A DNA stretch of 64,000 nucleotides from Candidatus Binatia bacterium (lineage in GTDB: Bacteria; Desulfobacterota; Binatia; Bin18), in the NCBI GenBank assembly GCA_963666315.2, contig CAXXHG010000043.1, forward strand, positions 448,001 to 512,000, read 5' to 3'. Shown here piece by piece: positions 8,826 to 64,000 of the stretch. Position 1 is the stretch's first letter. Every line of letters begins with the position of its first letter. A program made the translations under genes and the position numbers. The notes below the pieces were generated by a model. The model saw only the letters and a list, made by a program, of their open reading frames with translations, had not been told where the DNA came from and made no database searches.

Positions 8826-10255
8826 TTAGGCCGTGGTATTTGTGAGGGGTACGACCGTTGCGGTTGCTGTCGGATGAGAGCCAACACCATTGGTCGTAAC
8901 CGGCGGACTGGATGGAGTGGGAAGAAAGCCCGACAATACCTCCCGGTAGGATGTACCATTCAAGCGAAATGCAGGTCTGGTCTGATCCACGCCGGTATAA
9001 TAACGCAGCAGGGTGAGATAGCGCCGGACTAATTCTGGCAGTAAGAAGTTTTGTCGTACATGTGCTTGGGCCTGTTTCCCCAGCTGGGCAGTTTGCTCCG
9101 GATCATCTAGAATCTGAGCCATTTTTGTGGCAATAGCTTCGACATCAAGCGGCTCGACGAGATAACCGGTTTTTCCGTCTACAACCTGTTGCACGATTCC
9201 ACCAACGCGGGAACCAATGACCGGTCCCTTGCCACAAGGCCTCGGATACCACCAGGCCAAAACCTTCGCGTGTTGAGACATGGACGAAGCCGCGCGCAAG
9301 ACGCATGGGGGAGCCGACCACCTGATCGTTGTTTTCGACATTGACCCAAAAGTGGATATCCGGATCGTCGTCGGCTTGTGCTTTGAGTTGCGCAAGCGTG
9401 GCTTCCCCTTCTGGATCGTCTGTTGCCGTGTTGCCCAAGAAGATGAGAGAGGGTGCAGGGTCGTAGACCTTCTCTTCACGTAGCCGCTTGAATGCTCCAA
9501 TTATGGAGGCCTGATTTTTATGCATATCGTAGCGCGAAATTGCGGCCAGAATCAGTCGATCCGGATCGATAGTATGCTGCTGGAAAAGCGGCGCGAGAAT
9601 ATCCTTTGCCTGATTCTCCGTATATTGCCGGTTCTTCTCTGCGCGCGGGTCAATGCACGGGGTAATTTGATACTGCGGGATGTGCAGACTAGGTCCAACA
9701 AACTCCGGCATGGTGAAAATTGCCCCAGCGTACTGGTTGATATACGGGGCCAGAAAGCGCCACACCGTAGGGTTCGGGGTTGAGGTTTCAATATGGCATC
9801 GCCACAGGACATTGCCTATGAACACCCCATGCATAATGAGCGCTGCGGGTTGGGGGTCGTGGACGATAATTGGATCAGATTCGATCTGGACGTTTTGCGC
9901 ATTCGCTGCGAGAGTAACCAGATAGGTTTCGAAGAGTTCTTGGAGGGAAATCGGCTGGTCTACACCTTGGAGCGTATTGTGAAATTTCTTGGTGATCTGG
10001 AAGAAGGCGTCGTGGCCTTGAAATGGTGGACCAGCTGGCCTGGACCCCGAGTGAACAACCTAGGGGAATGACGCTACGCAGCATTTCCGCCACCCCTCCG
10101 CCAACAAAGGTGGAATTGATATTGGCCCAGCCTCGACCTTCGACTGCACCGGCCAAGTGTTTGAGCGCATCGACCCGTTCCTGTCCGATATACGGCTCGT
10201 ATTCGTCTACGGTGAGAGTCGCTTCGGGTTGATATTCTTCCAACAATGCGCTCAT
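8826..10255 (-). pseudogene. treT: TreT-like trehalose synthase / GT4 glycosyltransferase, frameshifted
   Basis: Successive fragments in different frames: INSTFVGGGVAEML, HDPQP, WRCHIE, ISRYD.HK, STREGFGLVVSEALW, GPVIGS.VGGI; several frame breaks. Confidence 0.8.
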
Positions 10256-10539
10256 ATTACTCACACTGCCCCTCCCTTGCACCACCCGTATCTCCATCCC
10301 TATATGAGAACATTCGGCTGTCAGAGAAGAACTCTTAAGCGAGATTGGTTCTCATGGCGTATGTCAAACACGAGATAACGAAAGAATATGGCGCCATAAA
10401 AAGTCCGAATCGAGGCGGCTTGTCAATAGGGGGGGCAGGGACAGAAGACTGCTAAGGGCAAGCGGGCGCTCGCTCTTCCTTGATCTGGGCTTTGGGTAAG
10501 GCCGACGGGTGTCTGAGAAATTTGGCAAATTCACGCGGC

Positions 10540-18582: not shown

Positions 18583-19794
18583 TTACACTATGTGCTTCTC
18601 ACGCAGCGCGGCAATTCTCTCCGTGCTGAAGCCGACGCTGCCCAGCACTTCCTCAGTGTGTTGCCCGAGCGACGGGGCAAAGGTGCGTATCGAGCCCGGC
18701 GTGTTCGATAGTTTGATGGCGATGCCGGCGTGGGTCACTTTTCCCGCTTGCGGGTGGTCTAGCTCAACCGCCATTTCTCGATGCTTCACCTGTGGGTCTT
18801 CAAAGACTTCGGGTACATCGTATACTTTGCCTACGCACACATCCGCTTTGGTGAAAAAGTCAAACCATTCGTCTCGCGTTTTGGTCAGTAAAATCTCCTG
18901 AAATTCCTGTTTCACCTGTTGATGTCGTTGGGTCGAGTGCCCGGAGAAATCGCCCATCTTCATGCCGCAGTCTTTCCAATCCGGCCGGTCGAGCACGTCG
19001 CACACATTATTCCACAGCCAAGGTTCGGTGCAGCCTATGGACAGCTGTTTGCCGTCCTTGGTGTTATAGACACTGTAATACGCATACCCACCGCCAAAGA
19101 CGCCTTTTGCCCGGCCCGGCATGGTGCCGTCTGCAAAATAATCACGCACGTTCGGCGTCGCGGCCAGCAGTGAGATGGTCGTGTCCAAATACGAGATATC
19201 GACCCATTGGCCTTTGCCCGTTTGCTGACGGGAAAACAGCGCATACATAATCCCGAGCGCGCCGTGCATCGAGGCCCCCGCGTAGTCGGCAATAATATTG
19301 AGCGGAATAGAGGGCGGGCCTTCGGACGGCCCAATCAAGTCCAGAACCCCACTCAAGGCGAGAAAGTTCAGGTCGTGGGCCGGAAAATCCCGGTACGGCC
19401 CGTCTTGGCCATAGCCGCTCAGCGAGCAATACACGAGACCGGGATTAATCTTGCTCAGTCTCTCGTAGTCACCGCCCAGCCGTTGCATCACTCCGGGCCG
19501 GAAGCCCTCGACCAAGACATCATATTCCTTGGCTAACGCATGCAGGACTTCTTGTCCGGCCGGATCTTTGAGATTCAGAGTCAGGCTTTTTTTATTGCGA
19601 TTGGTAAAGCTGGTGGCAATTTTATGCGCCTCCTCCGGCTGTGGAGAGGCACCGGAGCCCGCTAGTTTGCCCGTAGGCGGAGGCTCGATTTTCAGCACCT
19701 CAGCGCCCATATCCGCCAGCATCATGGTACAGAACGCGCCTGGTCCAACCCGTGTCAGCTCAAGAACTTTAATTCCGTCGAGTGCGAGTGCCAT
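18583..19794 (-). CDS. Family III CoA-transferase (CaiB/BaiF)
   Basis: LDGIKVLEL, LADMGAEVLKIE, NRNKKS, EGFRPGV, catalytic Asp in IADYAG, APSLGQHT. Confidence 0.94.
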   Translation of the reverse strand: MALALDGIKVLELTRVGPGAFCTMMLADMGAEVLKIEPPPTGKLAGSGASPQPEEAHKIATSFTNRNKKSLTLNLKDPAGQEVLHALAKEYDVLVEGFRPGVMQRLGGDYERLSKINPGLVYCSLSGYGQDGPYRDFPAHDLNFLALSGVLDLIGPSEGPPSIPLNIIADYAGASMHGALGIMYALFSRQQTGKGQWVDISYLDTTISLLAATPNVRDYFADGTMPGRAKGVFGGGYAYYSVYNTKDGKQLSIGCTEPWLWNNVCDVLDRPDWKDCGMKMGDFSGHSTQRHQQVKQEFQEILLTKTRDEWFDFFTKADVCVGKVYDVPEVFEDPQVKHREMAVELDHPQAGKVTHAGIAIKLSNTPGSIRTFAPSLGQHTEEVLGSVGFSTERIAALREKHIV

Positions 19795-22771: not shown

Positions 22772-23977
22772 ATGACTGTGCCATCAGCCCTGTCCGACCT
22801 CCGTGTCCTTGATTTGACCGACATTAAAGGAGCCCTGTGTGCCAAGCTTTTTGGGGATATGGGAGCGGACGTTCTCAAGATCGAGCCACCGGGTGGGGAC
22901 GTTATGCGTCGCATCGGTCCGTTTCTCAATGGCAAACCGCATCGGGAGCGCAGCCTCCTGTTTTGGTTTTACAATACGAGTAAACGCGCTATTACGCTCG
23001 ATCTAAATCAGACGGCTGGCCAGGAACTCTTCAAAAATATGGTTGTAAAAGCGGACATTGTAGTGGAATCCGCAGCTCCTGGGACACTCGCTCAGCTCGG
23101 CTTGGGCTATGACGATCTGAAGCGGATCAACCCGAACATCGTGCTTACCTCAATTACGCCGTTTGGCCAAACCGGACCGTATAAGGACTATCGTGCTTCA
23201 GACATAGTGGCCGAAGCCGTGGGTGGGATGATGTGGACCAATGGTTTCCCGGATGAGGCGCCGCTGCACGGAATGGGACTGCAGGCCTACCACAGTGCGT
23301 CTTTTTTTGCGGCTATTGGAACCATGTCCGCTCTGTGGGCGCGCGATGCCCTAGGCGAGGGCCAATGGGTTGATGTGAGTATGCAAGAAGCAGCCGCCGG
23401 AGCGGTGGAACACATAGCGCCGTTCTATCATCAGGGACTTGGCATTGAGAAACGTCAGGGCAGTCTGCATTGGAGCCGGTATTTCCGCGTGGCCAAATGC
23501 CGTGACGGCTATGTCATGCACTGTTCACTCGGCGATTGGACCTCGCTTGTCGAATGGGTGAAGGGCGACGGCAAAGCCCGCGACCTCGATGACGCGCACT
23601 GGGAAGACCTCACCTATCGAAAAGAAAACGCCGAACACTTGTTCGATATTCTTGATGACTGGGCGGCAGACTATAGTGTGGCGGAACTGATGGAGGGCGC
23701 GCAGTTACGGCGTATTCCGTATGCCATGGTCAGACCGCCCGAAGCCTTGGTGGATGATCCGCAATTGAACGACCGAGGCTTTTTCTCGGACGTTGAACAT
23801 CCAGAACTGAGTCAGTCGTTCCGTTACCCTGGCGGCCCAAGCCGTTTTAGCGCTACGCCGTGGCGCATCGCGCGCCGCCCACCGCTGCTCGGGGAGCATA
23901 ATAACGAGGTGTACAGCGGAGAACTGGGTCTGGCTTCAGGCCGGTTGGCGGAACTGGCGGAGTCGGGCGTGATCTAG
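22772..23977 (+). CDS. Family III CoA-transferase, BbsE-like subunit apparently lacking the catalytic Asp
   Basis: LSDLRVLDL, DMGADVLKIEPPGGD, NTSKR, PPLLGEHN; QAY at the position of the usual active-site Asp. Confidence 0.9.
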   Translation: MTVPSALSDLRVLDLTDIKGALCAKLFGDMGADVLKIEPPGGDVMRRIGPFLNGKPHRERSLLFWFYNTSKRAITLDLNQTAGQELFKNMVVKADIVVESAAPGTLAQLGLGYDDLKRINPNIVLTSITPFGQTGPYKDYRASDIVAEAVGGMMWTNGFPDEAPLHGMGLQAYHSASFFAAIGTMSALWARDALGEGQWVDVSMQEAAAGAVEHIAPFYHQGLGIEKRQGSLHWSRYFRVAKCRDGYVMHCSLGDWTSLVEWVKGDGKARDLDDAHWEDLTYRKENAEHLFDILDDWAADYSVAELMEGAQLRRIPYAMVRPPEALVDDPQLNDRGFFSDVEHPELSQSFRYPGGPSRFSATPWRIARRPPLLGEHNNEVYSGELGLASGRLAELAESGVI

Positions 23978-25063: not shown

Positions 25064-26029
25064 ATGTCTGCGAGTCTTAGCCTTTGGGTCGGCTTTACTG
25101 TTATCGTTCTCGTTATTCTGATTCTTGACCTTGGAGTCTTTCATCGTCACGCTCACGAGGTCTCACGAAAAGAAGCCGGGCTGTGGTGTCTCTTATGGGT
25201 GAGCCTGGCGCTGTCATTTGATGGCTGGATCTATTATACCCAGGGGCCGGAACCCGCGCTTGAGTTTCTCGCCGGCTATCTTATTGAAAAATCGCTCAGC
25301 TTCGACAATATTTTTATCTTTCTATTGATCTTCTCTTATTTTTCCGTTCCTCGGATATACCAACACCGCGTCCTTTTTTGGGGGATCATAGGCGTACTCC
25401 TCATGCGCGGTATCTTTATCGCCGTGGGAGCGACGCTGCTGCATCACTTCCATTGGGTGATGTATATTTTTGGTGCGTTCTTGATTTTTACCGGTATCAA
25501 AATGCTCCTGTCAAAAGACACCGAAACCGACCCCGGCAATAACCCCGCAGTCAAGCTTCTGCGCCGCTTTATGCCGGTGACCGATGCGTATGAGGGCCAG
25601 CATTTCTTTGTCCGCAAAAACGGCAAACTGTTTGCCACCCCACTCTTTGTGGTCCTCATCACGGTTGAAAGCATGGACCTCATTTTTGCGGTGGACTCCA
25701 TTCCCGCCGTCTTTGCGGTGACCAAGGACCCGTTCATTGTCTATACCTCGAACGTCTTTGCCGCGCTCGGCTTGCGCGCCTTGTACTTCCTGATTGCCGG
25801 CGTGCTCGATCTGTTTGTTTACCTGCGCTACGGGCTTGGTGTTGTGCTCAGTTTCGTCGGCGTCAAAATGGCCTTGGTCGATGTGTATCAAATCTCGATT
25901 GGCCTTTCGTTAGGGGTTATTGCCGTCGTACTGACCATTACGATTGTCGCTTCTCTGCTTTTTCCACCTAAAGAGCCGGAATCGAATGGCTCTGCTCAGC
26001 CTGAAGAGGACGTTTCTGAAGTGGGATAG
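25064..26029 (+). CDS. TerC/Alx family membrane protein
   Basis: EKSLS.DNIF.F, QHRVLFWG, DLIFAVDSIPA, F.VYTSNVFA..GLRALYF. Confidence 0.94.
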   Translation: MSASLSLWVGFTVIVLVILILDLGVFHRHAHEVSRKEAGLWCLLWVSLALSFDGWIYYTQGPEPALEFLAGYLIEKSLSFDNIFIFLLIFSYFSVPRIYQHRVLFWGIIGVLLMRGIFIAVGATLLHHFHWVMYIFGAFLIFTGIKMLLSKDTETDPGNNPAVKLLRRFMPVTDAYEGQHFFVRKNGKLFATPLFVVLITVESMDLIFAVDSIPAVFAVTKDPFIVYTSNVFAALGLRALYFLIAGVLDLFVYLRYGLGVVLSFVGVKMALVDVYQISIGLSLGVIAVVLTITIVASLLFPPKEPESNGSAQPEEDVSEVG

Positions 26030-26125
26030 GCTATCTCAAGCAAGCGAATAGCCGTCCGTATCGGCCTAGTCAGGATGAGCCAGGGCTGGGCGGCGACTGA
26101 TCTTCAGCAATCTTTGAGGAAGAGC

Positions 26126-27445
26126 ATGACAATACAGCGGAAAAGGCGCCGGGCGCTGGAAGGCGTGCGCATTCTCGACTTTACCTGGGTCGTAGCGGGT
26201 CCGGTCGCGACACGCATCCTGGCCGACCAAGGCGCGGAGGTCATTAAGGTCGAGCGGCGCGATACGCTCGATCTTGGGACGCGTCGGGGTGGTTTCAGCG
26301 GCAATTTGCATCGCGGTAAAGAGAGCATGGTCGTCAATATGGCCGATCCACGTGGCATCGAGATCGCCCAGCAACTCGCCGCAGTGTCGGACGTGGTGAT
26401 AGACAACTTCAGCGCCCGCGTCATGCGCAACTGGGGCCTTGATTATGAGAGCCTCAAAAAGATTAAGCCGAATATTATTGCCGTTTCTATGTCGGGCTTT
26501 GGACACACCGGGCCGCAAAAGGATTATGTCAGCTATGGTCCGACGCTGCAGGCATTGTCCGGCTATACGCTCCAGATGCGTCATCCGGGTGGAGAGCCTG
26601 CTGGCTGGGGCTATTCGTATGCAGACATGACCGGCGGCTATAGCGGCGCGCTGGCCGTGCTCATGGCCCTGTGGCATCGCAAGCGTACCGGCCAGGGACA
26701 GTTTGTCGACCTGTCGCAGTTTGAAGCCATCTCCAGTTTGATTGGTCCGGGCATGCTGGACATTTTACATAACGACACGCCAAGTGAACCTATCGGCAAC
26801 CGTTCGCAAGAAGCCCCGGCTGCCCCGCATGGGGTATACCGATGTGCGGGGGAAGACCGCTGGTGTGCGATTGCCGTGTTTACCGAAGAGGAGTGGCAGA
26901 ATCTGTGTCGCGTCATGGAGCAGCCTGCTTGGACCCAGGAGACACACTTCGCCACCCTAGCCGGTCGCCTGGAGCATAACGACGTACTCGACCGTCATCT
27001 TGAAGGCTGGACCCGGCAGCAGACTGCTAAAGATGTGATGTCGCGTTTGCAACAGGCTGGAATTGCGGCCGGGGTGGTGGCAAACGGAGAAGATCTGGAC
27101 CAAGATCCACAACTCCAAGCTCGTGGCTACTGGGCGCGCATGCAGGCATCCGAGGGACAAGATCGGATGGGTGTGATGGCTGGGATGGATATGATGGCTG
27201 GGATGGATATGATGGCTGGGATGGATATGATGGCTGGGATGGACGTTGTCCTTGACGGCCCACCCCTCAAACTCTCACAAACGCCAGGCTATGTCGCAGC
27301 ACCAGGACCGTTGCTGGGTGAGCACACCGACAGTGTCCTCAGCCGACTGCTCGGCTATTCTTCGGAACAGCTTGCCCAACTCAAGGAAGATCGCGTGATC
27401 GCGTCACATGCAGAGATTCACGCCGAGCGGGCGGAGCGGGAGTAA
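26126..27445 (+). CDS. Family III CoA-transferase, BbsF-like subunit, with in-frame Met-rich repeat
   Basis: LEGVRILDFTWVVAGP, LADQGAEVIKVE, DNFS, YADMTGG (catalytic Asp), GPLLGEHT. Confidence 0.92.
   Translation: MTIQRKRRRALEGVRILDFTWVVAGPVATRILADQGAEVIKVERRDTLDLGTRRGGFSGNLHRGKESMVVNMADPRGIEIAQQLAAVSDVVIDNFSARVMRNWGLDYESLKKIKPNIIAVSMSGFGHTGPQKDYVSYGPTLQALSGYTLQMRHPGGEPAGWGYSYADMTGGYSGALAVLMALWHRKRTGQGQFVDLSQFEAISSLIGPGMLDILHNDTPSEPIGNRSQEAPAAPHGVYRCAGEDRWCAIAVFTEEEWQNLCRVMEQPAWTQETHFATLAGRLEHNDVLDRHLEGWTRQQTAKDVMSRLQQAGIAAGVVANGEDLDQDPQLQARGYWARMQASEGQDRMGVMAGMDMMAGMDMMAGMDMMAGMDVVLDGPPLKLSQTPGYVAAPGPLLGEHTDSVLSRLLGYSSEQLAQLKEDRVIASHAEIHAERAERE
27165..27243 (+). repeat. 18-bp coding tandem repeat ATGGCTGGGATGGATATG (3 perfect copies plus partial flanks)
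   Basis: Units at 27176, 27194, 27212, partial at 27230; encodes (MAGMDM)n. Confidence 0.95.
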
Positions 27446-28401: not shown

Positions 28402-30310
28402 ATGGCGAGTCGAAGTCATTATTCTGTCACCTCTCAAGACCGGCAGAGTGGTGGACATCCGGTCCGCTTGTTTGTGATCAATCTGGGCTGTCTGGTGCTG
28501 CTCGCCAGCTTCGGGTTTGCATGGATCTTTTATCACGACCTGACGCGGGCGCTTCCTGAGGTTGGGCATCTTGCCGCGATATGGCGGCAAGATGCCGCGC
28601 GTTACTTGCGAATTGGCGTGCTGGCCGGACGGTCCAAGGCGGCAGCACGATTACCCAACAGGTTGTGAAATCTTTCCTGCTCAGCTCGGAGCGGAGTTAC
28701 CGGCGCAAGATTCAAGAAATTATTTTGGCAATCCGACTCGAACGCCATGCGAGCAAGGCCGAAATTCTGGCCCTATATCTGAACCAGATTTATCTGGGCG
28801 GTGGCGCGTACGGAGTGGAGACTGCCGCGCGGGAATATTTTGGAAAATCAGTCACGGATCCTTCCTTGGCCGAGGCTACGCTCCTCGCTGGGCGTCCGCC
28901 CGCACCGAGTCGGTACTCGCCCCGGCGGCACCTTGAACGGGCCAAATTCCGTCAACGCTACGTGCTGGAACGCATGCTTGATGAGCATGTCGTATCCTAT
29001 ACCCAAGCCATGGCTGCCTGGAAGGAGAGTTTCTCTTTCCGCAATCCTCGCCCCGCCGTGTCCTTTGCCCGGGCGCCACACTTTATGATGCAAGTCCGTC
29101 AGTTTCTCGGCGGCCGGTACGGGCGGGAGGTGAGCCCGCAGCTTGGGCTGAACGTCTATACCACCCTGGACTCAGCGTGGCAGCGTATTGGAGAACGGGC
29201 TATCCGAAATGGTATTCACGCGCTGTGTGAACAGACTGGATGCGGCCAAGGGGATATCCCGTGGCCCTAAGGAGCCCTGATCTCAATTGATCTTACGTCC
29301 GTTCACATCAAGGCCATGGTGGGCAGCTACGACTTCCGCCGCAGCCAGTTTAACCATACCACCCAAGCCAGGCGCCAACCCGGCTCGGCCTTTAAGCCCC
29401 TGGTTTACGCCGCCGCCTTGGATCGGAACTATACGCCAGCAAGTATCATTGTCGACTCTCGGGTCTCCTACAAAGATGGGAGACGGACGTGGACGCCTCA
29501 GAATTACGAACGCCGCTATTTTGGGCCGACTCGACTGCGTAAGGCGCTCACACACTCTCGTAATATGGTAACGGTCAAAATGGCAGCGGCATTAGGGATG
29601 GATTATCTCACTATGTATATCTCTCAACTCGGGATTTAGAGTCCCCTGGCCAGAAATCTTTCGCTTGCCCGCGGGACCTCGGAGGTCACGCTCCTGGAGC
29701 TCGCCCGCGCCTACGGAGTGTTTGCGACCGGGGCTTTCTACTTGAACCGAGTGTAGTTTCTAGGATTACTGATAGTCAGAGAAATTTTTTAGAGGAGCTG
29801 ACCCCGCAGCGTAAGCGGGTCATCTCAGCCGAGATAGCCTATCTGATGACCAGCATGCTGCAGAGTGTTGTTGAGGCTGGGACCGGAGGGCGGGTGCAGT
29901 CGCTGGGCCGGTCGGTGGCCGGGAAAACGGGTACGAGTGACGACTTCCACGATGCGTGGTTTATAGGTTATACGCCTGACATTCTTACCGGAGTCTGGAT
30001 CGGTTTCGACAGACGTCGTTCGCTCGGTGAAAGACAGACCGGGGGGCGTGTGGCCGCCCCCATCTGGCTCGAATTCATGCATGCGGCCACTCAGGATCCG
30101 CCCCTGCGCAATTTTAAGATTCCGGAAGGCATTGCCATCATGCATATTGACCCTAGGACGGGTTTACGTGCCCGCCCTGGCGGGCCATCCCTATTGGAAT
30201 GCTTCCGCCGTCGTACCGAGCCGACTGTCTATGCGAAAGCGCCGGTTTATGCTGATCCGGTACTGTTTCCGGGCCTCCTTGCCGCCCGCTCGTCAGAAGA
30301 CGGATTTTAA
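28402..30310 (+). pseudogene. Class A penicillin-binding protein (PBP1A), decayed
   Basis: QGGSTITQQ, RK.QE, YLNQIY.G, QPGSAFKP, SRN, KTGT motifs; in-frame TAA 29268-29270 and TAG 29637-29639, frameshifts and apparent internal deletions. Confidence 0.9.
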
Positions 30311-53716: not shown

Positions 53717-54106
53717 ATGGACCAACCCTCAGAAAAAAGTATTAAACGCATGCGCATCTATGTAGAGAAATACATGCAGAAAACCGGCACCTCAGGCCAC
53801 CCGGATAACGAAGTGACCGAAGCCGTCATTCTGGGCCTGGCCAATAATATCGACGAAGTGGGCCGCCCGCTGTGTCCGTGTAATTTTTATCCTGACAAAA
53901 AAGCCGAAGTCGAGCGTAGTCGCGAATGGATGTGCGCCTGCGATGAGATGAAAAAGTGGAAGTATTGCCACTGTCTGCTCTTTGTGACTCCAGAGGGCAT
54001 GCCTATCACCGAATACCTGCCCGAAGACCACGAAGGCCGACAAAGTTACGGCCTCGTCAAAGACCCCACACCGGACAAAGGGCGAGAGTTGAAAGATAAG
54101 GCATAA
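53717..54106 (+). CDS. Ferredoxin-thioredoxin reductase catalytic (beta) subunit
   Basis: LCPC, CAC, CHC triad; VI.GLA...G.PLCPC. Confidence 0.92.
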   Translation: MDQPSEKSIKRMRIYVEKYMQKTGTSGHPDNEVTEAVILGLANNIDEVGRPLCPCNFYPDKKAEVERSREWMCACDEMKKWKYCHCLLFVTPEGMPITEYLPEDHEGRQSYGLVKDPTPDKGRELKDKA

Positions 54107-54257: not shown

Positions 54258-55142
54258 ATGCAAACTGGATACTTTGCCATTGGCATTGGCCCGGCTGCGG
54301 ACCCCGAGGTCGTGAGTGTCACCGCTCAGACAGCTGAGCAATCGGGCTTTCATTCGTTATGGGCGCCGGAACACGTGGTGTTACTCGACCAGTACAGCTC
54401 GAAATACCCGTATTCAGCTGACGGTCGGATGCCTATGCCAACGACCCAGGTCGATATCCTGGATCCATTTACGGCTCTCACGTTTGCCGCAGCGCAGACG
54501 AAAACTATACGCTTGGGAACCGGCATTTGCCTCGTACCCGAGCGCAACCCTGTTATCACGGCGAAAGAGGTCGCCAGTCTGGACAAACTCTCAGGCGGCC
54601 GGTTTGATTTCGGCATAGGCGTAGGCTGGCTGGCGGAAGAGTTCTCCGCGGTCGGCGTACCTTGGGAACGACGTGCGGCGCGTACGCGTGAATATATCAA
54701 GGTTATGAAAATGCTGTGGACGGAAGAAGAGTCCGAGTTCGAGGGTGAGTTCTGTAGCTTTCCCAAAGTACGCTCCTACCCGAAACCAGTTCAGAACCCG
54801 CACCCGCCGATTATCTTTGGTGGAGAGAGCAAACCGGCCCTCAAACGTGTAGGAGAAGTAGGCGATGGCTGGTTTGGGGTGAATGTCACGCCTGAATCAG
54901 TAACAGAACATATTGCCCGGATAAAAAATTATGCCCAAGCCGCAGGCCGTGATCCGGACAAGTTCCATTTTTCTGTATCTCCAGGTATTGGCACACCAGT
55001 CGAGCTTGATATGGTCAAGCGCTTCCGTGATGTCGGCGTCCACCAGATCATTATTGGTGGGGTTGCGTCCGATCCAAAGGCGATTAAAGGCGATATCGAG
55101 AAACTGGCCGAAAAGATTACCGTACCCGCCGCAAGTCTCTAA
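54258..55142 (+). CDS. Luciferase-like (LLM) oxidoreductase, probable F420-dependent type
   Basis: AE..GF.SLW..EH, LDP...L..AA..T..IRLGT, LD.LSGGR..FG.G.GW..EE, PKP.Q.P.PPI..GG. Confidence 0.9.
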   Translation: MQTGYFAIGIGPAADPEVVSVTAQTAEQSGFHSLWAPEHVVLLDQYSSKYPYSADGRMPMPTTQVDILDPFTALTFAAAQTKTIRLGTGICLVPERNPVITAKEVASLDKLSGGRFDFGIGVGWLAEEFSAVGVPWERRAARTREYIKVMKMLWTEEESEFEGEFCSFPKVRSYPKPVQNPHPPIIFGGESKPALKRVGEVGDGWFGVNVTPESVTEHIARIKNYAQAAGRDPDKFHFSVSPGIGTPVELDMVKRFRDVGVHQIIIGGVASDPKAIKGDIEKLAEKITVPAASL

Positions 55143-55214
55143 TTCTGCACAAGGTTGAGCGCAGAGACGTGCGCCCATGACCTTACTGGGATAGATTTTG
55201 AGAGGAGAAGTGCT

Positions 55215-55871
55215 GTGACTCGACTCTACGGTGAGCAACACCGAGCTCTGCAGGATCAGTTTGAAACACGTAAACTGGCGGACCGTGTGGAAGAGGCTGT
55301 GCTGCAGTCGGAAGTCTCTGGTGAGAACCAGACCTTCATTGAGTCACGGGACATGTTTTTTCTCTCAACCGTTGATCATCAAGGCCGGCCGACTGTGTCG
55401 TATAAGGGCGGAGATCCAGGGTTTGTAAAGGTTGTGGACGAAAAGACGGTCGTATTTCCGAGCTATGACGGCAATGGAATGTTTTTTTCAATGGGCAATA
55501 TTGCTGGAAATCCGCATATCGGCATGTTGTTCGTCGATTTCGAGACTCCCAACCGCCTCCGCCTCCAAGGCACAGCGTCTGTTTCAGCGGATGATCCCTT
55601 GATCGCAGCATATAAGGAAGCCGAGCTTATCGTCCGCGTGCATGTTTCTGAAATCTGGACCAACTGTCCGCGCTACGTCCACCACTACCAAAAGGTCGAT
55701 CCCTCACGTTATGTTCCTAGAGCGGCAGGTGAAACGCCACTCGCAGAATGGAAGCGCATTGATATGCTGCAAGACGCGTTGCCGCCAAAAGATCACGGCC
55801 GGATAGAAAAGGCCGGCGGCACCATCTCGATGCAGGAATGGGCAGACAAAGCCAAAGCGGGTAACGGCTAA
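55215..55871 (+). CDS. Pyridoxamine 5'-phosphate oxidase-like flavin-binding protein
   Basis: FFLST....G.P.VSYKGG.PGFV, FP.YDGNG...S.GNI..NP.IG.LF.DF, NCPRY; GTG start after GAGGAG. Confidence 0.88.
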   Translation: MTRLYGEQHRALQDQFETRKLADRVEEAVLQSEVSGENQTFIESRDMFFLSTVDHQGRPTVSYKGGDPGFVKVVDEKTVVFPSYDGNGMFFSMGNIAGNPHIGMLFVDFETPNRLRLQGTASVSADDPLIAAYKEAELIVRVHVSEIWTNCPRYVHHYQKVDPSRYVPRAAGETPLAEWKRIDMLQDALPPKDHGRIEKAGGTISMQEWADKAKAGNG

Positions 55872-55915
55872 CCCTCGTACGTGGGTGACCGCCGAAGAGC
55901 CGTCACGCTATATGC

Positions 55916-55942
55916 GTAGGGGCGAGGTTACCTCGCCCCTAC
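55916..55942. repeat. REP-like palindrome GTAGGGGCGAGG-TTA-CCTCGCCCCTAC
   Basis: 12-bp perfect inverted repeat starting GTAG between convergent genes. Confidence 0.8.
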
Positions 55943-55974
55943 GGGTGTCCCGCTTCGAGATCGAGGGGACGCTC

Positions 55975-57108
55975 CTAAGCCTGCGCCTGCGCGCTCGCCG
56001 CAGCAAACTCGGCTTGCTCTTTAGGAAGCTGGAAGGCCGGATCATTTTGGATTACCGGCAGGACTTTCTCGGCAAAGAGCTGGAAACTACGGTTCAGTTG
56101 CGGAGCCGGCAGGCCACCAAAGGCAAAGGTACCGACCATGTGATCGAGTGCGACCGTTTTGTGAATATAACGGATTTTTTCAAGCACCTGCTCTGCAGTG
56201 CCGGCAGCGTGCAGGCCACGAAAGAACTCGACCGCCTTGGCCTTGACCTGTTCATCCGCATTGAGTTTGGCGAAGGTTTTCGCCATCTTGCCGTAAAACT
56301 CGTAGCCCTTGACGTTCTTCAGCTTACCAGAGGAAAAGCCATAGTGGTTTTCAATGGAATCGAACAGCGTGCCCATATACTGCTGAGCCAGATCCTCTGC
56401 TTCTTGCGCATCGTCAGCCACCAATACGTTGAAGAGTCCAATTGGCGGACGGGGCGTAATGCCGTTAGCCTGCGCTGTATCGACATAGCGTTGGTAATCC
56501 ACGGCCGTGTCTTCCCAGCTACGCTGGGAGATGATCAGCACCCCAAAGCCCATCTTGGCCATAATGTCAGCCGACTCCGGGCTCACCGAGGATGCATAAA
56601 AACGCTGCTCGGGATGAGAAATCGGGCGCGGGCGGATCTGCATTTCCGGGATCTGGTAATATTTGCCCTCATACGAAAAGCTTTCCTGGGTTAAGCCCCT
56701 ACGGATGATGTCCGCGCATTCAACAAAGCGTGCGCGCGACTCGTCCATGGGAATCCGGAAACCCTCGTATTCAACTATGGCTGCGCCCCGCCCAAAACCG
56801 AAAATGGTGCGGCCGCCCGACACCAGGTCTAGCAGCGCAATTTTCTCTGCCACTTCGACTGGATCGTGCCACGGCAGCACGATCACAGCGGTACCGAGTT
56901 GAATCTTTTTCGTGCGGCCAGCCATATAGGTCAGCAACTGACATGGGTCGGGTGACATCACATAGCCGGTGAAATGGTGGTCGAGACTCCACAGCGAGTC
57001 AAAGCCATAGCCTTCTGCTTTGTCGGCAATCGACAGTTCTTCTTGATAAGTCTGAAGATCAGGCTTGCCTCCAAAACTGGTCAATTGCATTATCGTGCCT
57101 ACTTTCAT
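55975..57108 (-). CDS. LLM class flavin-dependent oxidoreductase
   Basis: AE..GFD..W..DHHF, LGTAV.VLPW.DP, LD..SGGR..FG.GRG. Confidence 0.92.
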   Translation of the reverse strand: MKVGTIMQLTSFGGKPDLQTYQEELSIADKAEGYGFDSLWSLDHHFTGYVMSPDPCQLLTYMAGRTKKIQLGTAVIVLPWHDPVEVAEKIALLDLVSGGRTIFGFGRGAAIVEYEGFRIPMDESRARFVECADIIRRGLTQESFSYEGKYYQIPEMQIRPRPISHPEQRFYASSVSPESADIMAKMGFGVLIISQRSWEDTAVDYQRYVDTAQANGITPRPPIGLFNVLVADDAQEAEDLAQQYMGTLFDSIENHYGFSSGKLKNVKGYEFYGKMAKTFAKLNADEQVKAKAVEFFRGLHAAGTAEQVLEKIRYIHKTVALDHMVGTFAFGGLPAPQLNRSFQLFAEKVLPVIQNDPAFQLPKEQAEFAAASAQAQA

Positions 57109-57195
57109 AACAACCCTCCTTGGTTCTCCCTTGGTCAAATTCGGGACCTATTGTAGAAGAGTAAGGCCAATTACACAAACGGTAGGATAAAAAGA

Positions 57196-57255
57196 TTCAA
57201 GGTTCAAAGTTTAAGGTTCAAGTCTCCTGCCCCCAGCCCCTAATCCCTAACCCCT
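57196..57255. repeat. Intergenic heptamer tandem repeats (TTCAAGG and CCCCTAA types)
   Basis: TTCAAGG TTCAAAG TTTAAGG TTCAAG and CCCCAG CCCCTAA TCCCTAA CCCCTG. Confidence 0.6.
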
Positions 57256-57337
57256 GCGGCCTTCCCCTTGGCTTTGAACATTTCCCCTCTTTCTGTTACA
57301 GGATCGAATCAATTCCCTGAAAGCAGAAGGAAAACCT

Positions 57338-58540
57338 ATGGTAATAGATTCATTACTCATCGATTGTGACGGACATATTCTCGAACCGCCTGATCTGTGG
57401 GAGCAGTATATTGATCCGCAATATCGTGATCGTGCCCTGCGCATCCGCGTCGATAAGAATGACGGGTATGAGTATATTGAGATTGATGGCAAGCGATCCA
57501 AACTCACGCGTCCGGGTACCCTCGGCACCTTGGGCGGCATGGGCAAGCAGGTGAATGAGGCCACCCAGCTGCGCGAGCGAGCTATGCGGGGTGAAATAAA
57601 ACCCGAAGAGGTGCGGGCGCTGCTACCAGGACCGGAGCAGACATATCTGAAGGGGGCCGCTTTCGGCACTATGGATATGAAAGAGCGGATAGAGCTGCTT
57701 GATCGTGAGGAGATGGCAAAATCAATCCTGTATCCCACGATAGGCCTGCTATGGGAGGCCGAGTTGTTTGATCCCGAACTGTCTGCAGCCTATTGCCGGG
57801 CGTATAACCGTTGGATTGCCGACTTCTGTCGTGACTCAGGCGGACGGCTGATCCCTATCGCACATCTTTCGCTTGGTGATCCGGCTGAGGCAGCGCGTGA
57901 ACTCGAACGTGCGGTTAAGGACGGCTGCAAGGGGGCCTTTGTGAGTCCGTTTACGATCTCACGTATCCCGCACGGCGACCCGCGCCATGACGCAGTGTTT
58001 GCAGTAGCCCAAGACCTGGACGTGCCTCTCGGCATTCATCCCACGTTTGAGCCGCCCGAATGGGGCATACACCAGCGCTACGATAAATTTGGTTGGGCTA
58101 TGTGGTACGTCGACCTCTTCGCCGGCCAGGGTGTACAACACGCCTTCGGTACATTTTTTCAGCTCGGGGTCTTTGACCGTTTCCCGCGCTTGCGAGTCGT
58201 AGTGCTGGAATCACAAGCCGGCTGGATCGGCTACTTCCTGGATCGTGCTGATGCGATTTTCAGCGGTACGACGCTCGGTGCGACCGTTCGCCTGAAAGAA
58301 AAACCGTCGTACTATTTTCAACGCCAGTGTTATATTTCTGCCGACCCTGGAGAACGGACCATCGCTTCCCTGACGAGCCTGGTCGGTGAGGACAAATTCT
58401 TCTGGGCCAGCGATTATCCGCATCCCGACCATCCGGACAATTATCTCGAAGAGTTGCAGAAGATGATTGCTCCTATGAATGATACCGCCCGGCGCGGTAT
58501 TCTGGGCGAGAATGTTGCCAAAGCCTATAAGCTGAACTGA
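57338..58540 (+). CDS. Amidohydrolase_2 family metal-dependent hydrolase/decarboxylase
   Basis: D.DGH..EP, LYPT, AYNRW..DFC, IH, GVFDRFP.L.....E...GW, WASDYPH.D. Confidence 0.93.
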   Translation: MVIDSLLIDCDGHILEPPDLWEQYIDPQYRDRALRIRVDKNDGYEYIEIDGKRSKLTRPGTLGTLGGMGKQVNEATQLRERAMRGEIKPEEVRALLPGPEQTYLKGAAFGTMDMKERIELLDREEMAKSILYPTIGLLWEAELFDPELSAAYCRAYNRWIADFCRDSGGRLIPIAHLSLGDPAEAARELERAVKDGCKGAFVSPFTISRIPHGDPRHDAVFAVAQDLDVPLGIHPTFEPPEWGIHQRYDKFGWAMWYVDLFAGQGVQHAFGTFFQLGVFDRFPRLRVVVLESQAGWIGYFLDRADAIFSGTTLGATVRLKEKPSYYFQRQCYISADPGERTIASLTSLVGEDKFFWASDYPHPDHPDNYLEELQKMIAPMNDTARRGILGENVAKAYKLN

Positions 58541-58565
58541 ATCAAAGGAGGTATAAGGAGACAGT

Positions 58566-59720
58566 ATGGCCGACCAAGACATTAAGAGGGCCGTGCAGGA
58601 TATTGAGTGTCCGGTGGTTGAGCAGCCTGCCTTCACTACCCCACCTCCTCTGGAAGAAGCGACGGTGGCCATCGTTACCTCGGCGTCGCTGCACCATCCC
58701 GACCAGGATGACTTCGCCCCGAAAGATACCAGCTACCGGGTGCTCGACGCGTCGCGGCGCGACTATCTTGTTGGCCACTGGAGCCCCAACTTTGACACGG
58801 CAGGTGTTGCCGCCGATCTGAACGTTGTGTTTCCCCTCGACCGGCTAGATGAGCTCGCTGCCCAAGGACGTATCGGCAAAGTTGCCGACCAACACTTAGC
58901 CTTTGCCGGTAACCAATTTGACCTGGCTCAGATTCGGATGGACGGTGGCCCTGCAGGTGCGGCGTTTCTCAAAGAACAGGGCGTTGACGTAGTGCTGCTC
59001 ACCCCAGTCTGACCGCTGTGCACGCGTACCGTGTGTACGCTGGCGCATATCTTTGAGGCAGCTGGAATGGCGACGGTAGCCCTTGGTTCGATCCGCCAAC
59101 AAATGATCGGTACTGCGCCACCGCGCGGGTTGGCGTGTGACTTTCCGTTGGGGCGTCCCATCGGTAAACCCAATGACGCGGAGTTCCAGCACAAGGTGCT
59201 CGCCCACGCGTTCTCCATGCTGAAGCGAACCGAGCCAGGTGTCGAAGATTTTCCCGAATCCATTCCAGACGAAGGAACTGAAATGCTCGTATGTCCACTT
59301 CCACCCAGGCACGATCCTGATGCCCATCCCGCTGTTGATGAGGCACGTGGCCTACGGGTGGCCTACGACCGGGCCATCGAGAAGTACGGTAATCGTGTCG
59401 GGGCCGGTCGAGCTATCAGTGCGGACGATGTCCCATCTGCCATTGAATCGTTTATTCGGATCAGCGAAGGAACGCCGTGGAAAGAAGCCCAGATTCCCGG
59501 CGTTCCAGCCCGCGTCGCCCAGGACATTCGCGGCTACTACGAGACGGCAGCATTGGCCATTGTCGATCATACGCCGGCGGCCTGGGCGGGTCTGCGCTGG
59601 TTTCGTGATGCAACCCAAACAGGCAAAGTTATCCGGGCGGCTCAGCAGGCCATGAAAGATGCCGACGTCCGGCGGGACTTGTGGCTCTTCTTGCTGCCTA
59701 TGGATAGTATGCAGGACTAA
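58566..59720 (+). CDS. PrdB/GrdB-like selenoprotein (Sec at codon 149, UxxC) with C-terminal extension, 384 aa
   Basis: ORFs 58566-59012 and 59031-59720 share a frame, joined by a single TGA in VLLTPV-U-PLC; family motifs VAIVTS, D.SYR, DLN.VFPLDRL.ELA..G.IG, E.AG..TV, PPR...FP.G.P.G. Confidence 0.88.
59017..59047 (+). promoter_or_regulatory. Putative bacterial SECIS element
   Basis: TGTGC-AC-GCGTAC-CGTGT-GTACGC-TG-GCGCA hairpin; apical loop begins 17 nt after UGA with G at loop position 2. Confidence 0.7.
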
Positions 59721-59735
59721 AAGGAAGACACAGAT

Positions 59736-60218
59736 ATGGCTTCTTTCTTATCAATAAATGACCCTGAGTTCTGGAAACACTACCCCGAGGAGCTGAAAGA
59801 CTTGGCCGGGACTCCTCCAGAAGGCATAACCGGACTGGCCTATTTTTTGTTGGGTGACAGGAAAGACAACCCACCGACCGTGGTGACCCTGCGCATGGGG
59901 CCGAACTGGGTCTTGCCTCGACACGCACATGACTGCCATCGCTTTGAAGTCGTAGTACAAGGCAGCCTGGACGTGGGAGATCGGACGCTCAAGCCCGGAG
60001 ACGTGATGATTAGCGAACCAGGCCTCGCCTACGGCCCACATATCGCTGGCCCAGAAGGCTGCACGACTTTTGAGATCTTCAGCAACCACCGCGCCTCGTA
60101 TGTGACCTTCGTTGATACGCCAGAAGGGCGCGTCGAGTGCGACATGTCGACTCCGGAAGGGCTGAAGAAAATGGAGCAGGTCATGCAGCGGGATATGGAG
60201 GCGCAGGCGCAGGCGTAG
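59736..60218 (+). CDS. Cupin domain protein (ChrR-like)
   Basis: PRHAH....EVVVQGS, PGD......G..YGP..AG.EGC. Confidence 0.85.
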   Translation: MASFLSINDPEFWKHYPEELKDLAGTPPEGITGLAYFLLGDRKDNPPTVVTLRMGPNWVLPRHAHDCHRFEVVVQGSLDVGDRTLKPGDVMISEPGLAYGPHIAGPEGCTTFEIFSNHRASYVTFVDTPEGRVECDMSTPEGLKKMEQVMQRDMEAQAQA

Positions 60219-60234
60219 CGGAGACCAGCATAAT

Positions 60235-60270
60235 CCCTTCTCCCTTGAGGGAGAAGGTTAGGATGAGGGG
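60235..60270. repeat. Intergenic hairpin, REP-like or terminator
   Basis: CCTTCTCCC-TTGA-GGGAGAAGG inverted repeat followed by TTAGGATGAGG. Confidence 0.55.
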
Positions 60271-60379
60271 GAATCAGGAAAAACTCCCCCTTCAGCTAAG
60301 AATGGAATAACATAAATTTGGCCCCGACCCCACCCGCCGGCGCGCTGCTCCAATCCTCATCTTGCCTGCTTGAGCCGAG

Positions 60380-60671
60380 TTAGAGCCCCTCGACCAAGAC
60401 GAGATCGCCGCTGGAGCCAGTTTGGCGTAACTTAATAAGCGGGGCGTACTCCGGGTCGTTGTACCACGCTTGTGCCTTCTCCATGGACGGGAACTCAATA
60501 ACGACCCTCACCCTTGATGACGGCGCTGTTCCTTCCTTGACCTCCGTCTTCCCTCCGCGCACCAAATACCGTCCCCCATGCTTCTCCACCAGAGCCTCGA
60601 CCTTCGGGCCATACTCTTCCAACCATGAGGGATCGGCTCACATCTACTGCACCGATAAGATAAGCTGGCAT
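60380..60671 (-). pseudogene. DUF1330 family protein, frameshifted near 60635
   Basis: MPAYLIGAVDV / DPSWLEEY...V..HGGRYLVRGG...EG...VIEFPS...A..WY..PEY; RBS AAGGAGG. Confidence 0.85.
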
Positions 60672-60798
60672 AACTGTGACCTCCTTCGTATTTCCTAAAG
60701 TCTCATCTCGCCTATCGTAGTAGTCGAAGGCGGTAAGTCAATCACAACGAAAGCTTCTCAATGTAAAAAATTGTAAAAGGAGACTGCTTCTCCCGCAC

Positions 60799-60948
60799 CC
60801 AAACTTCGGCATGACCTGCGTGGCGAACAGCTCCATTGAGCGTTCGGACTGAGCTTGGGTCAGACTGCCCCAAGCAAATGACACCAAAATATAATTGTAG
60901 CCGCTCGTCTCAAAGAAGCTGGCAATGGCGCCCTGCATTCGACTGGGC
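60799..60948 (-). repeat. 150-bp direct repeat copy A: remnant of LLM gene 3' end
   Basis: 137/150 identical to 63281-63430 by manual alignment. Confidence 0.92.
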
Positions 60949-61133
60949 AATCTTTCGCTCGGCCCGCTATCAGCTCGTATCGGGCGGAGGAGTAGGATGG
61001 CCATGAGCTTGAGTGTGCAGATCGTGGCCTATCTTCTCTATTTCTCCGCACATGGCGACACCACGCCGGTTGCCTGCCCTTATTGCCCAGGGTAAGACAG
61101 AACCATCAGAATAACCGAGGGAGCGTAACGACC

Positions 61134-61801
61134 ATGGCATCAGATATACAGTTCCACTACTTCCACGGAAGAGGCATCGGAGAGCCGATCCGCCTGCTGT
61201 TCACCGTGGGTGAGATCGAATTTACAGACCATCGTTATACCGTGGACCGAATTCGCCGATATGGCGGCGTTCAAAGCACAGCTGCCTTTCGGACAAATGC
61301 CTGCCCTTGAGGTAGACGGCGTATTCATAGGGCAGACGGACAGCATTGCGCGTCTAGCTGCGCGCTTAGCTGGTTTGTATCCGTCGGATCCTATTGAGGC
61401 AGCGCGCAGTGACATGATCGTCGTGCACCAAGCGGAAATTCAGTCTGCCATCGCAAAGATGAGCTTCGATGGCGTTCCCGGTACTCCAGAGATGAAAATG
61501 GTTCCGCAAGAAGAGAGGCAGAAACGCATCGCCGCATTTTGCGAGACGAAGCTTCCCGGCCTTCTGCTACGCCTAGAGCATCTGCCACAGGAATCCTGCA
61601 TGGGTGGGGTCGCAGCTGTCGTGGGCTGATATTTCTGTCTTCAATCGGTTGAACCAACTACTCGACATGAATGAAAACGTATTGCAGCCTGACTTCCCAA
61701 AACTGCAGGCGGTATACGAAAGAGTCGAGGCGTTACCGCAAATCCAGTCATGGATGCAGATGCACAAAGACGACTATCCCAGATGCGAAGCAGGGGGCTA
61801 A
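61134..61801 (+). pseudogene. Glutathione S-transferase (sigma-class-like), frameshifted
   Basis: YF.GRG.GEPIRLLF / LPFGQ.P.LEVDG..I.QT..IAR / G.QLSWAD...FPKL across three frames. Confidence 0.85.
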
Positions 61802-63276: not shown

Positions 63277-64000
63277 TCATCCAAACTTCGGCATGACCTG
63301 CGTGGCGAACAGCTCCATTGAGCGTTCGGACTGGGTTTGGGTCAGACCACCCCAGGCGAATGATCCCAAAATATAATTGCAGCCACTGGTCTCAAAGAAG
63401 CTGGCAATGGCGTCCTGCACTCGACTGGGCGAGCCGACGATGGCGACGTCGAGGCTGCGGGCGACATCCAGGTCCGGGGTGAACAAGGTGTGAGCAACAC
63501 CAAAGTCCAGCCACAGTTTTTCGATGTTGTCGTAATGCTTTTTGTAGGCCGGCGTAGCAATGGTCTCGGCTTCCTGATCGGTCTCGGCCACAAAAATATG
63601 CCGCAAGGCGCCCATCTTGGGCGCTTCAATATGCGGGTTGAGATTCAGCGGATTATCGCGGTTTTGGGACCACATGTCTTGATACTGAGCCGTCAGTTTC
63701 TTGAGTCCATTATTCGGTCCGCCGCTGGCCATGTGCATGCCGCGCTCGGCGGCAAATTGGAGGCTGTTCGGATTGACGACACCATACCAAAAGGGTGGAT
63801 TCGGCGTTTGCTTGGGGTGAAGTTCAATGGGCACGTCTACGCATTCATAATGCCGACCCTGATACGACAGGCGCTCTTGGCGTAGGCCCGCCACGACCAT
63901 CTCAAGCGCTTCTTGAAACATCGCGCGCGAATGCAGAAAAGGCACCCCAAAGTACGCCTGTTCAAAGGGCGAGACGCCTCGGCCCACACCGATCTCTAAG
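63277..64000 (-). CDS. LLM class flavin-dependent oxidoreductase (N-terminus outside window)
   Basis: G.GRGVSPFE, P.Q.P.PP.W, VG.P..V, SMELFA..VMP. Confidence 0.9.
   Translation of the reverse strand, partial: LEIGVGRGVSPFEQAYFGVPFLHSRAMFQEALEMVVAGLRQERLSYQGRHYECVDVPIELHPKQTPNPPFWYGVVNPNSLQFAAERGMHMASGGPNNGLKKLTAQYQDMWSQNRDNPLNLNPHIEAPKMGALRHIFVAETDQEAETIATPAYKKHYDNIEKLWLDFGVAHTLFTPDLDVARSLDVAIVGSPSRVQDAIASFFETSGCNYILGSFAWGGLTQTQSERSMELFATQVMPKFG
63281..63430 (-). repeat. 150-bp direct repeat copy B (3' end of LLM gene)
   Basis: Matches 60799-60948. Confidence 0.92.

Follow-up and report, generated by a model that had tools for sequence, protein, structure and literature searches.

A probable selenoprotein gene that fuses a PrdB/GrdB-like core to a family-specific C-terminal domain in a Candidatus Binatia genome

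The stretch of DNA analyzed here, referred to as the window, comprises 64,000 nucleotides from a Candidatus Binatia bacterium (GenBank assembly GCA_963666315.2, contig CAXXHG010000043.1, positions 448,001 to 512,000 of the forward strand), and coordinates below are those of the window unless another contig is named. With a probability of about 0.85, positions 58566-59720 form one selenoprotein gene in which the UGA at codon 149 is decoded as selenocysteine (Sec) and whose product is placed, as a distant member, with selenoprotein B (Pfam GRDB). The main result for the window is the correct annotation of this gene, which is one Sec gene and neither two open reading frames (ORFs) nor a pseudogene. 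Gene callers cut it in two; according to the available parts of the ocean surveys cited below, the family is among the most abundant selenoprotein families in the ocean, and it is still mis-called and probably mis-named. The point of interest is the function of a selenoprotein B fusion that lacks PrdA and is common in marine and sponge-associated bacteria.

The features of the gene are as follows.

58544-58551, + strand: second AAAGGAGG, read directly from the sequence
58555..58560, + strand: Shine-Dalgarno-like AAGGAG, 5 nt ahead of the ATG at 58566, read directly from the sequence
58566..59720, + strand: coding sequence of the PrdB/GrdB-like selenoprotein with C-terminal extension, 384 codons plus a TAA stop, one frame with one TGA
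58599..59228, + strand: PrdB/GrdB-like core, residues 12-221 (NCBIfam TIGR04483, Pfam PF07355)
59010..59012, + strand: UGA codon 149, read as Sec, in the motif U149-P-L-C152; TGA in all 80 related loci
59020..59044, + strand: conserved part of a hairpin resembling a Sec insertion sequence (SECIS), 6-bp stem plus 2 lower pairs (synonymous constraint, RNAalifold)
59235..59717, + strand: family-specific C-terminal domain, residues 224-384 (alignments A3 and A4; AlphaFold2; no model match)

One reading frame with a conserved TGA

Under translation table 11 the region is listed as two ORFs, 58566..59012 (+, 148 residues) and 59031..59720 (+, 229 residues, GTG start), which share a common frame. The sole break in that frame is the TGA at 59010-59012, in the context VLLTPV-TGA-PLCTRTVC. 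An earlier note on this DNA had proposed that the two ORFs are one frame with a single TGA, and this was borne out: reading through the TGA gives a protein of 384 residues.

A scan of species-representative genomes (one per species) identified at least 557 stretches that encode relatives, and the best 80 were kept as loci (47 from Actinomycetota, 3 from unlabelled Microthrix, 17 from Pseudomonadota, 10 from Binatota, 2 from Tectimicrobiota [Entotheonella], and 1 from Gemmatimonadota). In these loci, which were assigned to phyla by record title and NCBI rank, tblastn matches covered residues 1-380 of 384, and the protein tree mostly tracked phyla. All 80 are MAG records, none of them from a cultured carrier, and L002-L006 lie on closed Binatia chromosomes. 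The same scan showed the window to be 99% identical to a contig of a Candidatus Binatia metagenome-assembled genome (MAG). TGA was kept at codon 149 in every one of the 80 loci, which represent five phyla; its offset from the start of the match was 148 codons throughout, with one locus off by a base. Invariant residues were found on both sides of the Sec codon (alignment A3).

Protein databases were consistent with this picture. Among the 120 best matches listed, 6 were near full length (98-100% of the query), and all 6 had Cys in the Sec column; the other 114 were pieces of 214-245 residues, 56-61% of the query, which correspond to the post-TGA fragment produced by gene callers. Among the best 150 matches of the tail-profile search described below, 11 of 12 full-length library representatives carried Cys at the Sec column and 1 carried Gly, and 2 N-terminally truncated representatives had Cys as well. 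A further 19 of these 150 were near-complete post-UGA pieces, with called starts spread over residues 156-184. The earlier note had named Cys or TGA aligned at residue 149, with homology on both sides, as the pattern that would support a selenoprotein, and this pattern was observed in the loci and in the full-length representatives.

It is highly improbable that the window holds two separate genes (148 and 229 residues, the second starting at GTG 59031) or that the TGA is a nonsense mutation or a sequencing error. Table 11 does list two ORFs, public gene calls give a downstream protein of 214-245 residues, and the window does hold genes that look frameshifted. However, the same TGA is present across five phyla between conserved residues, and Cys homologues continue uninterrupted through the site. 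In addition, inspection of the sequence before GTG 59031 revealed no Shine-Dalgarno motif, this GTG falls within the loop of the hairpin, and the downstream starts called in other genomes scatter instead of coinciding. This candidate was rejected as contradicted by the TGA in 80 of 80 loci and by the continuous Cys homologues.

Reassignment of TGA to an ordinary amino acid, of the code 4 or code 25 type and with no Sec involved, has a next to negligible probability. Reading TGA as sense does leave the frame open, but 9 of the window's 41 Pfam-supported ORFs, among them the immediately upstream gene, have TGA as their ordinary stop, which indicates that this codon has not been reassigned. Moreover, 11 of 12 homologues carry Cys at the site, not Trp or Gly, and the same TGA recurs in five phyla. 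Reassignment was likewise rejected, being contradicted by TGA stops in the window and by the Cys homologues. Taken together, the conserved TGA, the continuous Cys homologues, and the TGA stops elsewhere in effect rule out a split gene, a pseudogene, and a change of code.

When the window was scanned mechanically for further frames broken by a TGA, 47 candidates came up; a redox motif was present in the target only, and no second selenoprotein was seen. A promoter and terminator scan of 57000-61300 gave nothing informative.

One of the 80 loci (L014, positions 829-1974) lies on a contig binned as Gemmatimonadota (Candidatus Palauibacter), and its copy nests in the Pseudomonadota clade beside that of a gammaproteobacterial MAG (L015). 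Gene transfer may explain this placement, or the contig, which is 3.9 kb long, may have been misbinned.

A SECIS-like hairpin downstream of the UGA

A hairpin begins shortly after the UGA. Its upper stem pairs GCGTAC (59024-59029) with GTACGC (59035-59040) over 6 bp and closes an apical loop of 5 nt, CGTGT (59030-59034), which has the family form N-G-U-N-N and begins 17 nt after the A of the TGA. Two conserved lower pairs, G59020-C59044 and C59021-G59043, are separated from the upper stem by a 2x2 internal loop, and the conserved hairpin spans 11-35 nt downstream of the UGA. In the window sequence itself, the lower tier is predicted to have 5 pairs (59017-59021 with 59043-59047). The earlier note had described a two-tier hairpin; its upper stem, loop, and 17-nt spacing are as stated there, but only 2 pairs of its lower tier are conserved across phyla. 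In bacterial Sec decoding, such a hairpin is a SECIS element, which brings SelB with Sec-tRNA to the UGA. The hairpin also agrees with the wording in the available text of the 2005 Sargasso Sea survey (PMC1088965), which calls for a stem-loop immediately 3′ of the UGA whose small apical loop includes a G.

Of the comparative data, constraint on synonymous sites is a stronger argument for the hairpin than covariation. Codon choice at conserved residues was measured in ten-codon bins of an alignment of 80 sequences, from which L001 was dropped as a near-copy of the window. Normalized synonymous entropy was 0.321 at codons 151-160, compared with a mean of 0.709 over 252 columns and a range of 0.596-0.902 in the other 37 bins. 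The frozen codons coincide with the stem (T153 as ACG in 79/80, R154 as CGT in 78/80, S157 as AGT in 62/62, and T158 as ACG in 78/78), and the wobble positions beside the stem codons vary freely.

For the structure itself, 40 of the 81 sequences were picked for diversity (hairpin alignment A2, 39 distinct rows). The two-tier structure paired 92.1% of cells, versus 7.2-62.0% when the partners were slid, and RNAalifold, run with no structure imposed, gave the identical 8 pairs (6 in the stem and 2 below). A compensatory change was found at pair 18-28, which is U-A in 37 rows and C-G in 2, and pair 17-29 changed from G-C to G-U in one sequence. Lower pairs 11-35 and 12-34 hold in every row, with 9-37 in 25 of 39 and 10-36 in 20 of 39. 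All 40 sequences have G and U at loop positions 2 and 3, although these two bases also open a Val codon that never varies. These alignments support a SECIS-type hairpin under purifying selection.

Several observations weigh against a Sec-decoded gene with a SECIS element. No selA, selB, or selD was found among the 60 window ORFs scanned, and the window contains no tRNA gene of any kind. Gly occupies the Sec column in one full-length representative. The region 59005-59070 has an unremarkable fold energy (z = -0.27), as 73 of 200 shuffles fold equally well or better, and a perfect 6-bp stem with an early G in a 3-8 nt loop follows 32 of the 2036 TGA trinucleotides in the window. An Rfam scan of 58000-60500 (E <= 10) returned 6 weak matches of other kinds and no SECIS. 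Taken alone, in a single sequence, the hairpin is weak evidence. Direct covariation is thin, amounting to 1 pair in 2 sequences, because the stem hardly varies and most of its pairs never do; the conserved peptide CTRTV(S/C)T itself imposes some of that constancy.

In most of the 40 aligned sequences, loop bases 1 and 4 (A2 columns 21 and 24; window 59030 and 59033) co-vary as C..G (CGUG) or G..C (GGUC), the exceptions being L012 (G..G), L046 (C..C), and L053 (A..C). A pair between these two bases may form, which would flip the G and U out; a lineage effect is equally possible.

A distant selenoprotein B core fused to a private tail domain

The N-terminal part of the protein was best matched, among curated models, by the NCBIfam PrdB model TIGR04483 (124.4 bits, E 4.8e-36, with residues 12-221 aligned to positions 9-220 of the 238-position profile); the score stays below that model's equivalog cut-off of 300 bits. 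Pfam GRDB (PF07355) was passed, at 30.2 bits against a cut-off of 22, with residues 28-146 aligned to profile positions 222-345 of 347, so that the model stops 3 residues short of the Sec. The selenoprotein B model TIGR01918 (glycine/betaine/sarcosine/D-proline reductase) was missed, at 39 versus 65.45 bits, and the NCBIfam GrdF, GrdH, and GrdB models scored 31-48 bits, all below their cut-offs of 65-800. Among the full-length library representatives, 10 of 12 matched Pfam GRDB at E <= 0.001. When residues 1-148 were used as the query, 13 proteins were found, and no named true PrdB was among them.

No Pfam or NCBIfam model covers residues 224-384. They contain 13 invariant positions in alignments A3 and A4 (C243, R264, Y267, R269, R282, D320, R322, Y324, Y325, E326, H335, W345, and W373). 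A Pfam search with 24 sequences of this tail domain (E <= 5) gave only scattered chance matches, the best at 0.022. A search of the PDB by sequence found no match to the tail profile (best E 0.13), and with the whole protein the best match, at E 0.079, was an unrelated tautomerase-like stretch. The tail called under table 11 gave no usable match when used as a query against the ESM Atlas. When the tail profile was run against 1.84 billion representatives, 221 proteins matched at E <= 0.001. Among the best 150 of these, 14 extend back across the Sec site, all with the core in front; apart from these and the 19 post-UGA pieces, the remainder are mostly shorter or partial pieces. Judging from the best 150 of the 221 matches, the tail domain appears to occur almost only in this family.

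At least two of the best 150 tail-profile matches showed other settings. One protein of 1019 residues (P0147), with no Pfam family and no GRDB match, carries the tail domain at residues 684-827, and another of 304 residues (P0138), also with no GRDB match, carries it after matches to IalB and enoyl-CoA hydratase. These settings may be fusions or mis-assemblies.

An AlphaFold2 model built on a 37-sequence alignment formed one confident body (predicted local distance difference test [pLDDT] 91.7, predicted template modeling score [pTM] 0.91). The modeled core is alpha/beta, and helices make up the tail from residue 255 onward. U149 is placed in a loop between a strand (142-146) and a helix (152-165), with C152 on the first turn of that helix. 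A Foldseek search of the PDB with the model found 0 matches at E <= 0.001 (best 1.3e-2, template modeling [TM] score 0.24). The fusion of core and tail is predicted to be one compact body, and the modeled fold has no solved relative in the PDB.

The earlier note had proposed a PrdB/GrdB-like core with an extra conserved C-terminal domain, and Pfam GRDB, TIGR04483, and the tail-profile search agree with that claim. Its boundary needs correction, however: the family-like region was said to end near FPLGRPIG (193-200) with about 150 residues following, whereas the core extends to about residue 221 and the extension is about 160 residues long. On these sequence comparisons, the core is a distant relative of selenoprotein B. 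The protein belongs to a separate subfamily, in which a core of about 220 residues is joined to a private helical domain some 160 residues long.

The protein differs from both known groups of relatives. To PrdB (TIGR04483; C. difficile and C. sticklandii) it is homologous over about 210 residues. Sec is at position 149, compared with 151 in C. difficile PrdB according to the available part of PMC11229817, and UxxC is present in both. PrdB is about 26 kDa and lacks the 160-residue tail; the window protein has 384 residues, compared with a profile of 238 positions, and instead of the core-only form of about 240 residues that marks PrdB it has a tail conserved throughout the family. With GrdB, GrdF, and GrdH (PF07355, TIGR01917/01918, NF040794/5; about 430 residues), the core aligns to their C-terminal half, at about 221-418. 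These proteins carry an N-terminal extension of about 220 residues, whereas the window protein carries a C-terminal one, and their partners are GrdA and GrdE, GrdG, or GrdI.

The family has been catalogued before. In the available text of the Sargasso Sea survey (Zhang, Fomenko, and Gladyshev, 2005; PMC1088965), "Proline reductase (PrdB)", with the motif UxxC, comprises 42 Sec genes, and only two other known selenoprotein families are more abundant there. The Global Ocean Sampling (GOS) survey (Zhang and Gladyshev, 2008; PMC2398784) gives, in the part available, 235 proline reductase Sec genes in 38 samples and 110 Cys homologues. In its supplement file 1, the portion headed "#Proline reductase" contains PVUPLCTRT 18 times and UPLCTRT 22 times, and one read there spans the Sec motif, FPLGRP, DIRGYYE, and the C terminus. 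On these parts of the two sources, their "proline reductase" is the same family as the window gene, tail included in that one GOS read. The GOS group is also mixed, unlike the window family, as the same portion holds UPVCHQT 55 times as well as UGLCNQT and UPFCTRA. The earlier note had called the gene hidden, which holds for gene callers, which split it, but not for the literature, where the available GOS list of 2008 already includes the family with its tail. Relative to the GOS and Sargasso Sea catalogue, what the window contributes is a member from Binatia, set in a gene context of its own.

Other sources keep the same name. As far as their available text goes, a 2006 survey has "proline reductase" among the selenoproteins of Anaeromyxobacter and Geobacter uraniumreducens, and reviews of 2022 and 2026 have a single D-proline reductase entry, TIGR04483. 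No discussion of the tail domain was found in the available Sargasso Sea and GOS survey text, "PrdA" occurs 0 times in the GOS main text (PMC2398784), and the available survey and review texts do not set a core-plus-tail architecture apart from true PrdB. The term "PrdB-like" was not found in a literature search, and "GrdB-like" appeared, in the text available, only for fluoroacetate metabolism in Synergistota. In databases, NCBI calls the downstream piece "hypothetical protein", and JGI calls the Cys forms "D-proline reductase (dithiol) PrdB". The selenoprotein family is therefore already catalogued and not new, and the label "proline reductase" is probably wrong.

Gene neighborhood and possible function

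Neighborhoods were compared for 81 genes (the 80 loci and the window). The ORFs came from mechanical calling in G+C-rich DNA, and names are given only to clusters present in several loci; many of the singleton ORFs beside the gene have no Pfam match and are probably not genes. Two genes flank the selenoprotein gene in the window.

57338..58540, + strand: Amidohydro_2 gene (Pfam PF04909, E 5.6e-26), ending 25 nt upstream of the selenoprotein start
59736..60218, + strand: weak ChrR cupin-like gene (Pfam PF12973, E 1.3e-4, 22.1 bits, below the 27-bit cut-off), 15 nt past the stop

Counting the window, the Amidohydro_2 neighbor recurs in 7-8 loci, all but one from Binatia, and the cupin-like neighbor recurs in 4-8 Binatia loci. 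Both genes probably form one operon with the selenoprotein gene in Binatia. In 12 Acidimicrobiia loci, a major facilitator superfamily (MFS) transporter begins 4 nt past the stop, and its cluster is present in the flanks of 17 loci; its best models are of the lactate and oxalate/formate types, all below cut-off. Other recurrent flanking genes encode an indolepyruvate-ferredoxin-oxidoreductase-family protein (13 loci), a short-chain dehydrogenase (13 loci), and an EamA transporter (6-7 loci). Oxygen-dependent enzymes in the flanks include a PhyH dioxygenase (9 loci), a P450 (5 loci), and luciferase-like monooxygenases. None of the recurrent neighbors in the 81 neighborhoods was PrdA/GrdE-like or GrdA-like, and no neighbor of any kind was constant across them. 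The earlier note's statement that the window lacks a prdA/grdA/grdE-like gene was confirmed for the 60 window ORFs scanned, and it extends to the recurrent neighbors of the 80 other loci.

In the window, three luciferase-like oxidoreductase genes (F420/FMN-type LLM) and a PPOX-type flavoprotein gene surround the selenoprotein operon (54258-57138 and 63277-63987), and an FMN-dependent dehydrogenase gene is also nearby. An ORF at 55885..56694 (+) has no Pfam match, overlaps the LLM gene at 55975..57138 (-), and is probably not a gene.

In D-proline reductase, according to the available part of PMC11229817, PrdB uses its Sec to attack the alpha carbon of a proline held on the pyruvoyl group of PrdA, a U151C variant of PrdB is inactive, and PrdA, PrdB, and PrdH are co-encoded. 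It is improbable that the window protein serves as a true PrdB subunit in a D-proline or glycine-type reductase whose pyruvoyl PrdA or GrdE is encoded elsewhere in the genome. In favor of such a subunit, the best curated model is that of PrdB, JGI gives Cys homologues this name, the published surveys, as far as available, file the family as proline reductase, and Sec149 with its UxxC motif matches Sec151 of C. difficile PrdB in the part of PMC11229817 available. However, 124.4 bits is far under the PrdB cut-off of 300, TIGR01918 is missed as well, and the tail of about 160 residues is not in the 238-position PrdB model. C. difficile PrdB needs the co-encoded pyruvoyl PrdA and PrdH, and in the text available prdA, prdB, and prdH are clustered (PMC11229817), whereas neither partner is conserved beside the genes of the window family and no such cluster was found among the 60 window ORFs or the recurrent neighbors. 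The flanking PhyH, P450, and luciferase-like monooxygenase genes also seem ill-suited to Stickland fermenters, a link to lifestyle that we infer.

PrdB-like chemistry carried out without PrdA is the favored but tentative reading, drawn by analogy and put at somewhat short of even odds. In the mechanism envisaged, the selenol of U149 would be the nucleophile that attacks the substrate, as in PrdB. C152 would resolve the adduct to yield a selenenyl-sulfide, and a dithiol donor such as thioredoxin would re-reduce it. The tail domain would supply the substrate site in place of the PrdA of D-proline reductase; this is probable because no PrdA or GrdE lies beside the gene and because many Arg, Tyr, His, Trp, and Cys residues are invariant in the tail. 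The substrate would be a small carboxylate, which is probable because a monocarboxylate-type MFS transporter adjoins the gene in the 12 Acidimicrobiia loci.

In its full form, this proposal describes a self-contained Sec-dependent reductase, not a proline reductase subunit, in which a private helical domain would replace the pyruvoyl partner and a small carboxylate would be cleaved with thioredoxin-type reducing power. We regard it as possible but doubtful. The earlier note had proposed a stand-alone Sec enzyme with a function other than that of the Stickland reductases, and the architecture and gene context make such a difference plausible. An osmolyte-type quaternary amine, which needs no Schiff base, may serve as an example of a substrate. 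The carriers are Acidimicrobiia, Binatia, Entotheonella, and marine Pseudomonadales, and the neighboring genes encode oxygen-dependent enzymes. Two points count against such an enzyme: the neighbor analysis covers gene surroundings only, so that a partner gene may lie at a distance in these genomes, and contact between the tail and U149, which may occur in the model, is conjecture. If the protein does work without PrdA, there would be a second way to use selenoprotein B chemistry, with neighbor genes pointing to oxygen-dependent metabolism, and marine and sponge-associated bacteria would have a selenium demand to which no reaction is yet attached.

The main functional rival of the self-contained reductase is a thiol/selenol-disulfide oxidoreductase, which would be the product of the same Sec gene but would serve as a redox carrier or as a disulfide, peroxide, or protein reductase and would cleave no C-N or C-X bond. 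In the AlphaFold2 model, UxxC lies at the start of a helix that follows a strand. This placement is the geometry of CxxC redox proteins. No metabolic neighbor is constant, and the 2005 survey (PMC1088965), in the part available, places PrdB among thiol-dependent redox selenoproteins. Nevertheless, the only relatives of known function (PrdB, GrdB, GrdF, and GrdH) use Sec as a nucleophile that attacks carbon, and a 384-residue protein with a large conserved Arg/Tyr-rich domain, along with a monocarboxylate-type transporter co-transcribed in 12 loci, fits a small-molecule enzyme better. An oxidoreductase of this type is unlikely, but it is a better candidate than a true PrdB with its PrdA encoded at a distance.

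A gene at 53717-54106 (+) encodes a 129-residue protein similar to the beta subunit of ferredoxin-thioredoxin reductase (Pfam FeThRed_B, E 6.5e-22). Its sole NCBIfam match, "FtrB family double-selenoprotein", reached 40.9 bits against a 160-bit cut-off, and there is no in-frame TGA.

Elsewhere in the window, some genes appear in pieces. At 9145-10297 (-), the trehalose-synthase N-terminal domain TreT_GT1 is spread over two adjacent ORFs, with profile positions 1-36 in 9875..10297 and 105-143 in 9145..9834; the latter ORF has a GT1 domain match as well. The 40 nt between the two ORFs put them in different frames, and the arrangement suggests a frameshift in a glycosyltransferase gene or a fault in the assembly. 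At 28581-30310 (+), a class A penicillin-binding protein is likewise divided, with transglycosylase positions 48-177 in 28581..29270, the end of the transpeptidase domain in 29846..30310, and unassigned sequence between them, which may reflect frameshifts or a pseudogene. Finally, three family III CoA-transferase genes lie within 9 kb at 18583-27445 (18583..19794 on the - strand, and 22772..23977 and 26075..27445 on the + strand), with genes for a MoxR-type AAA ATPase and a VWA-domain protein between them.

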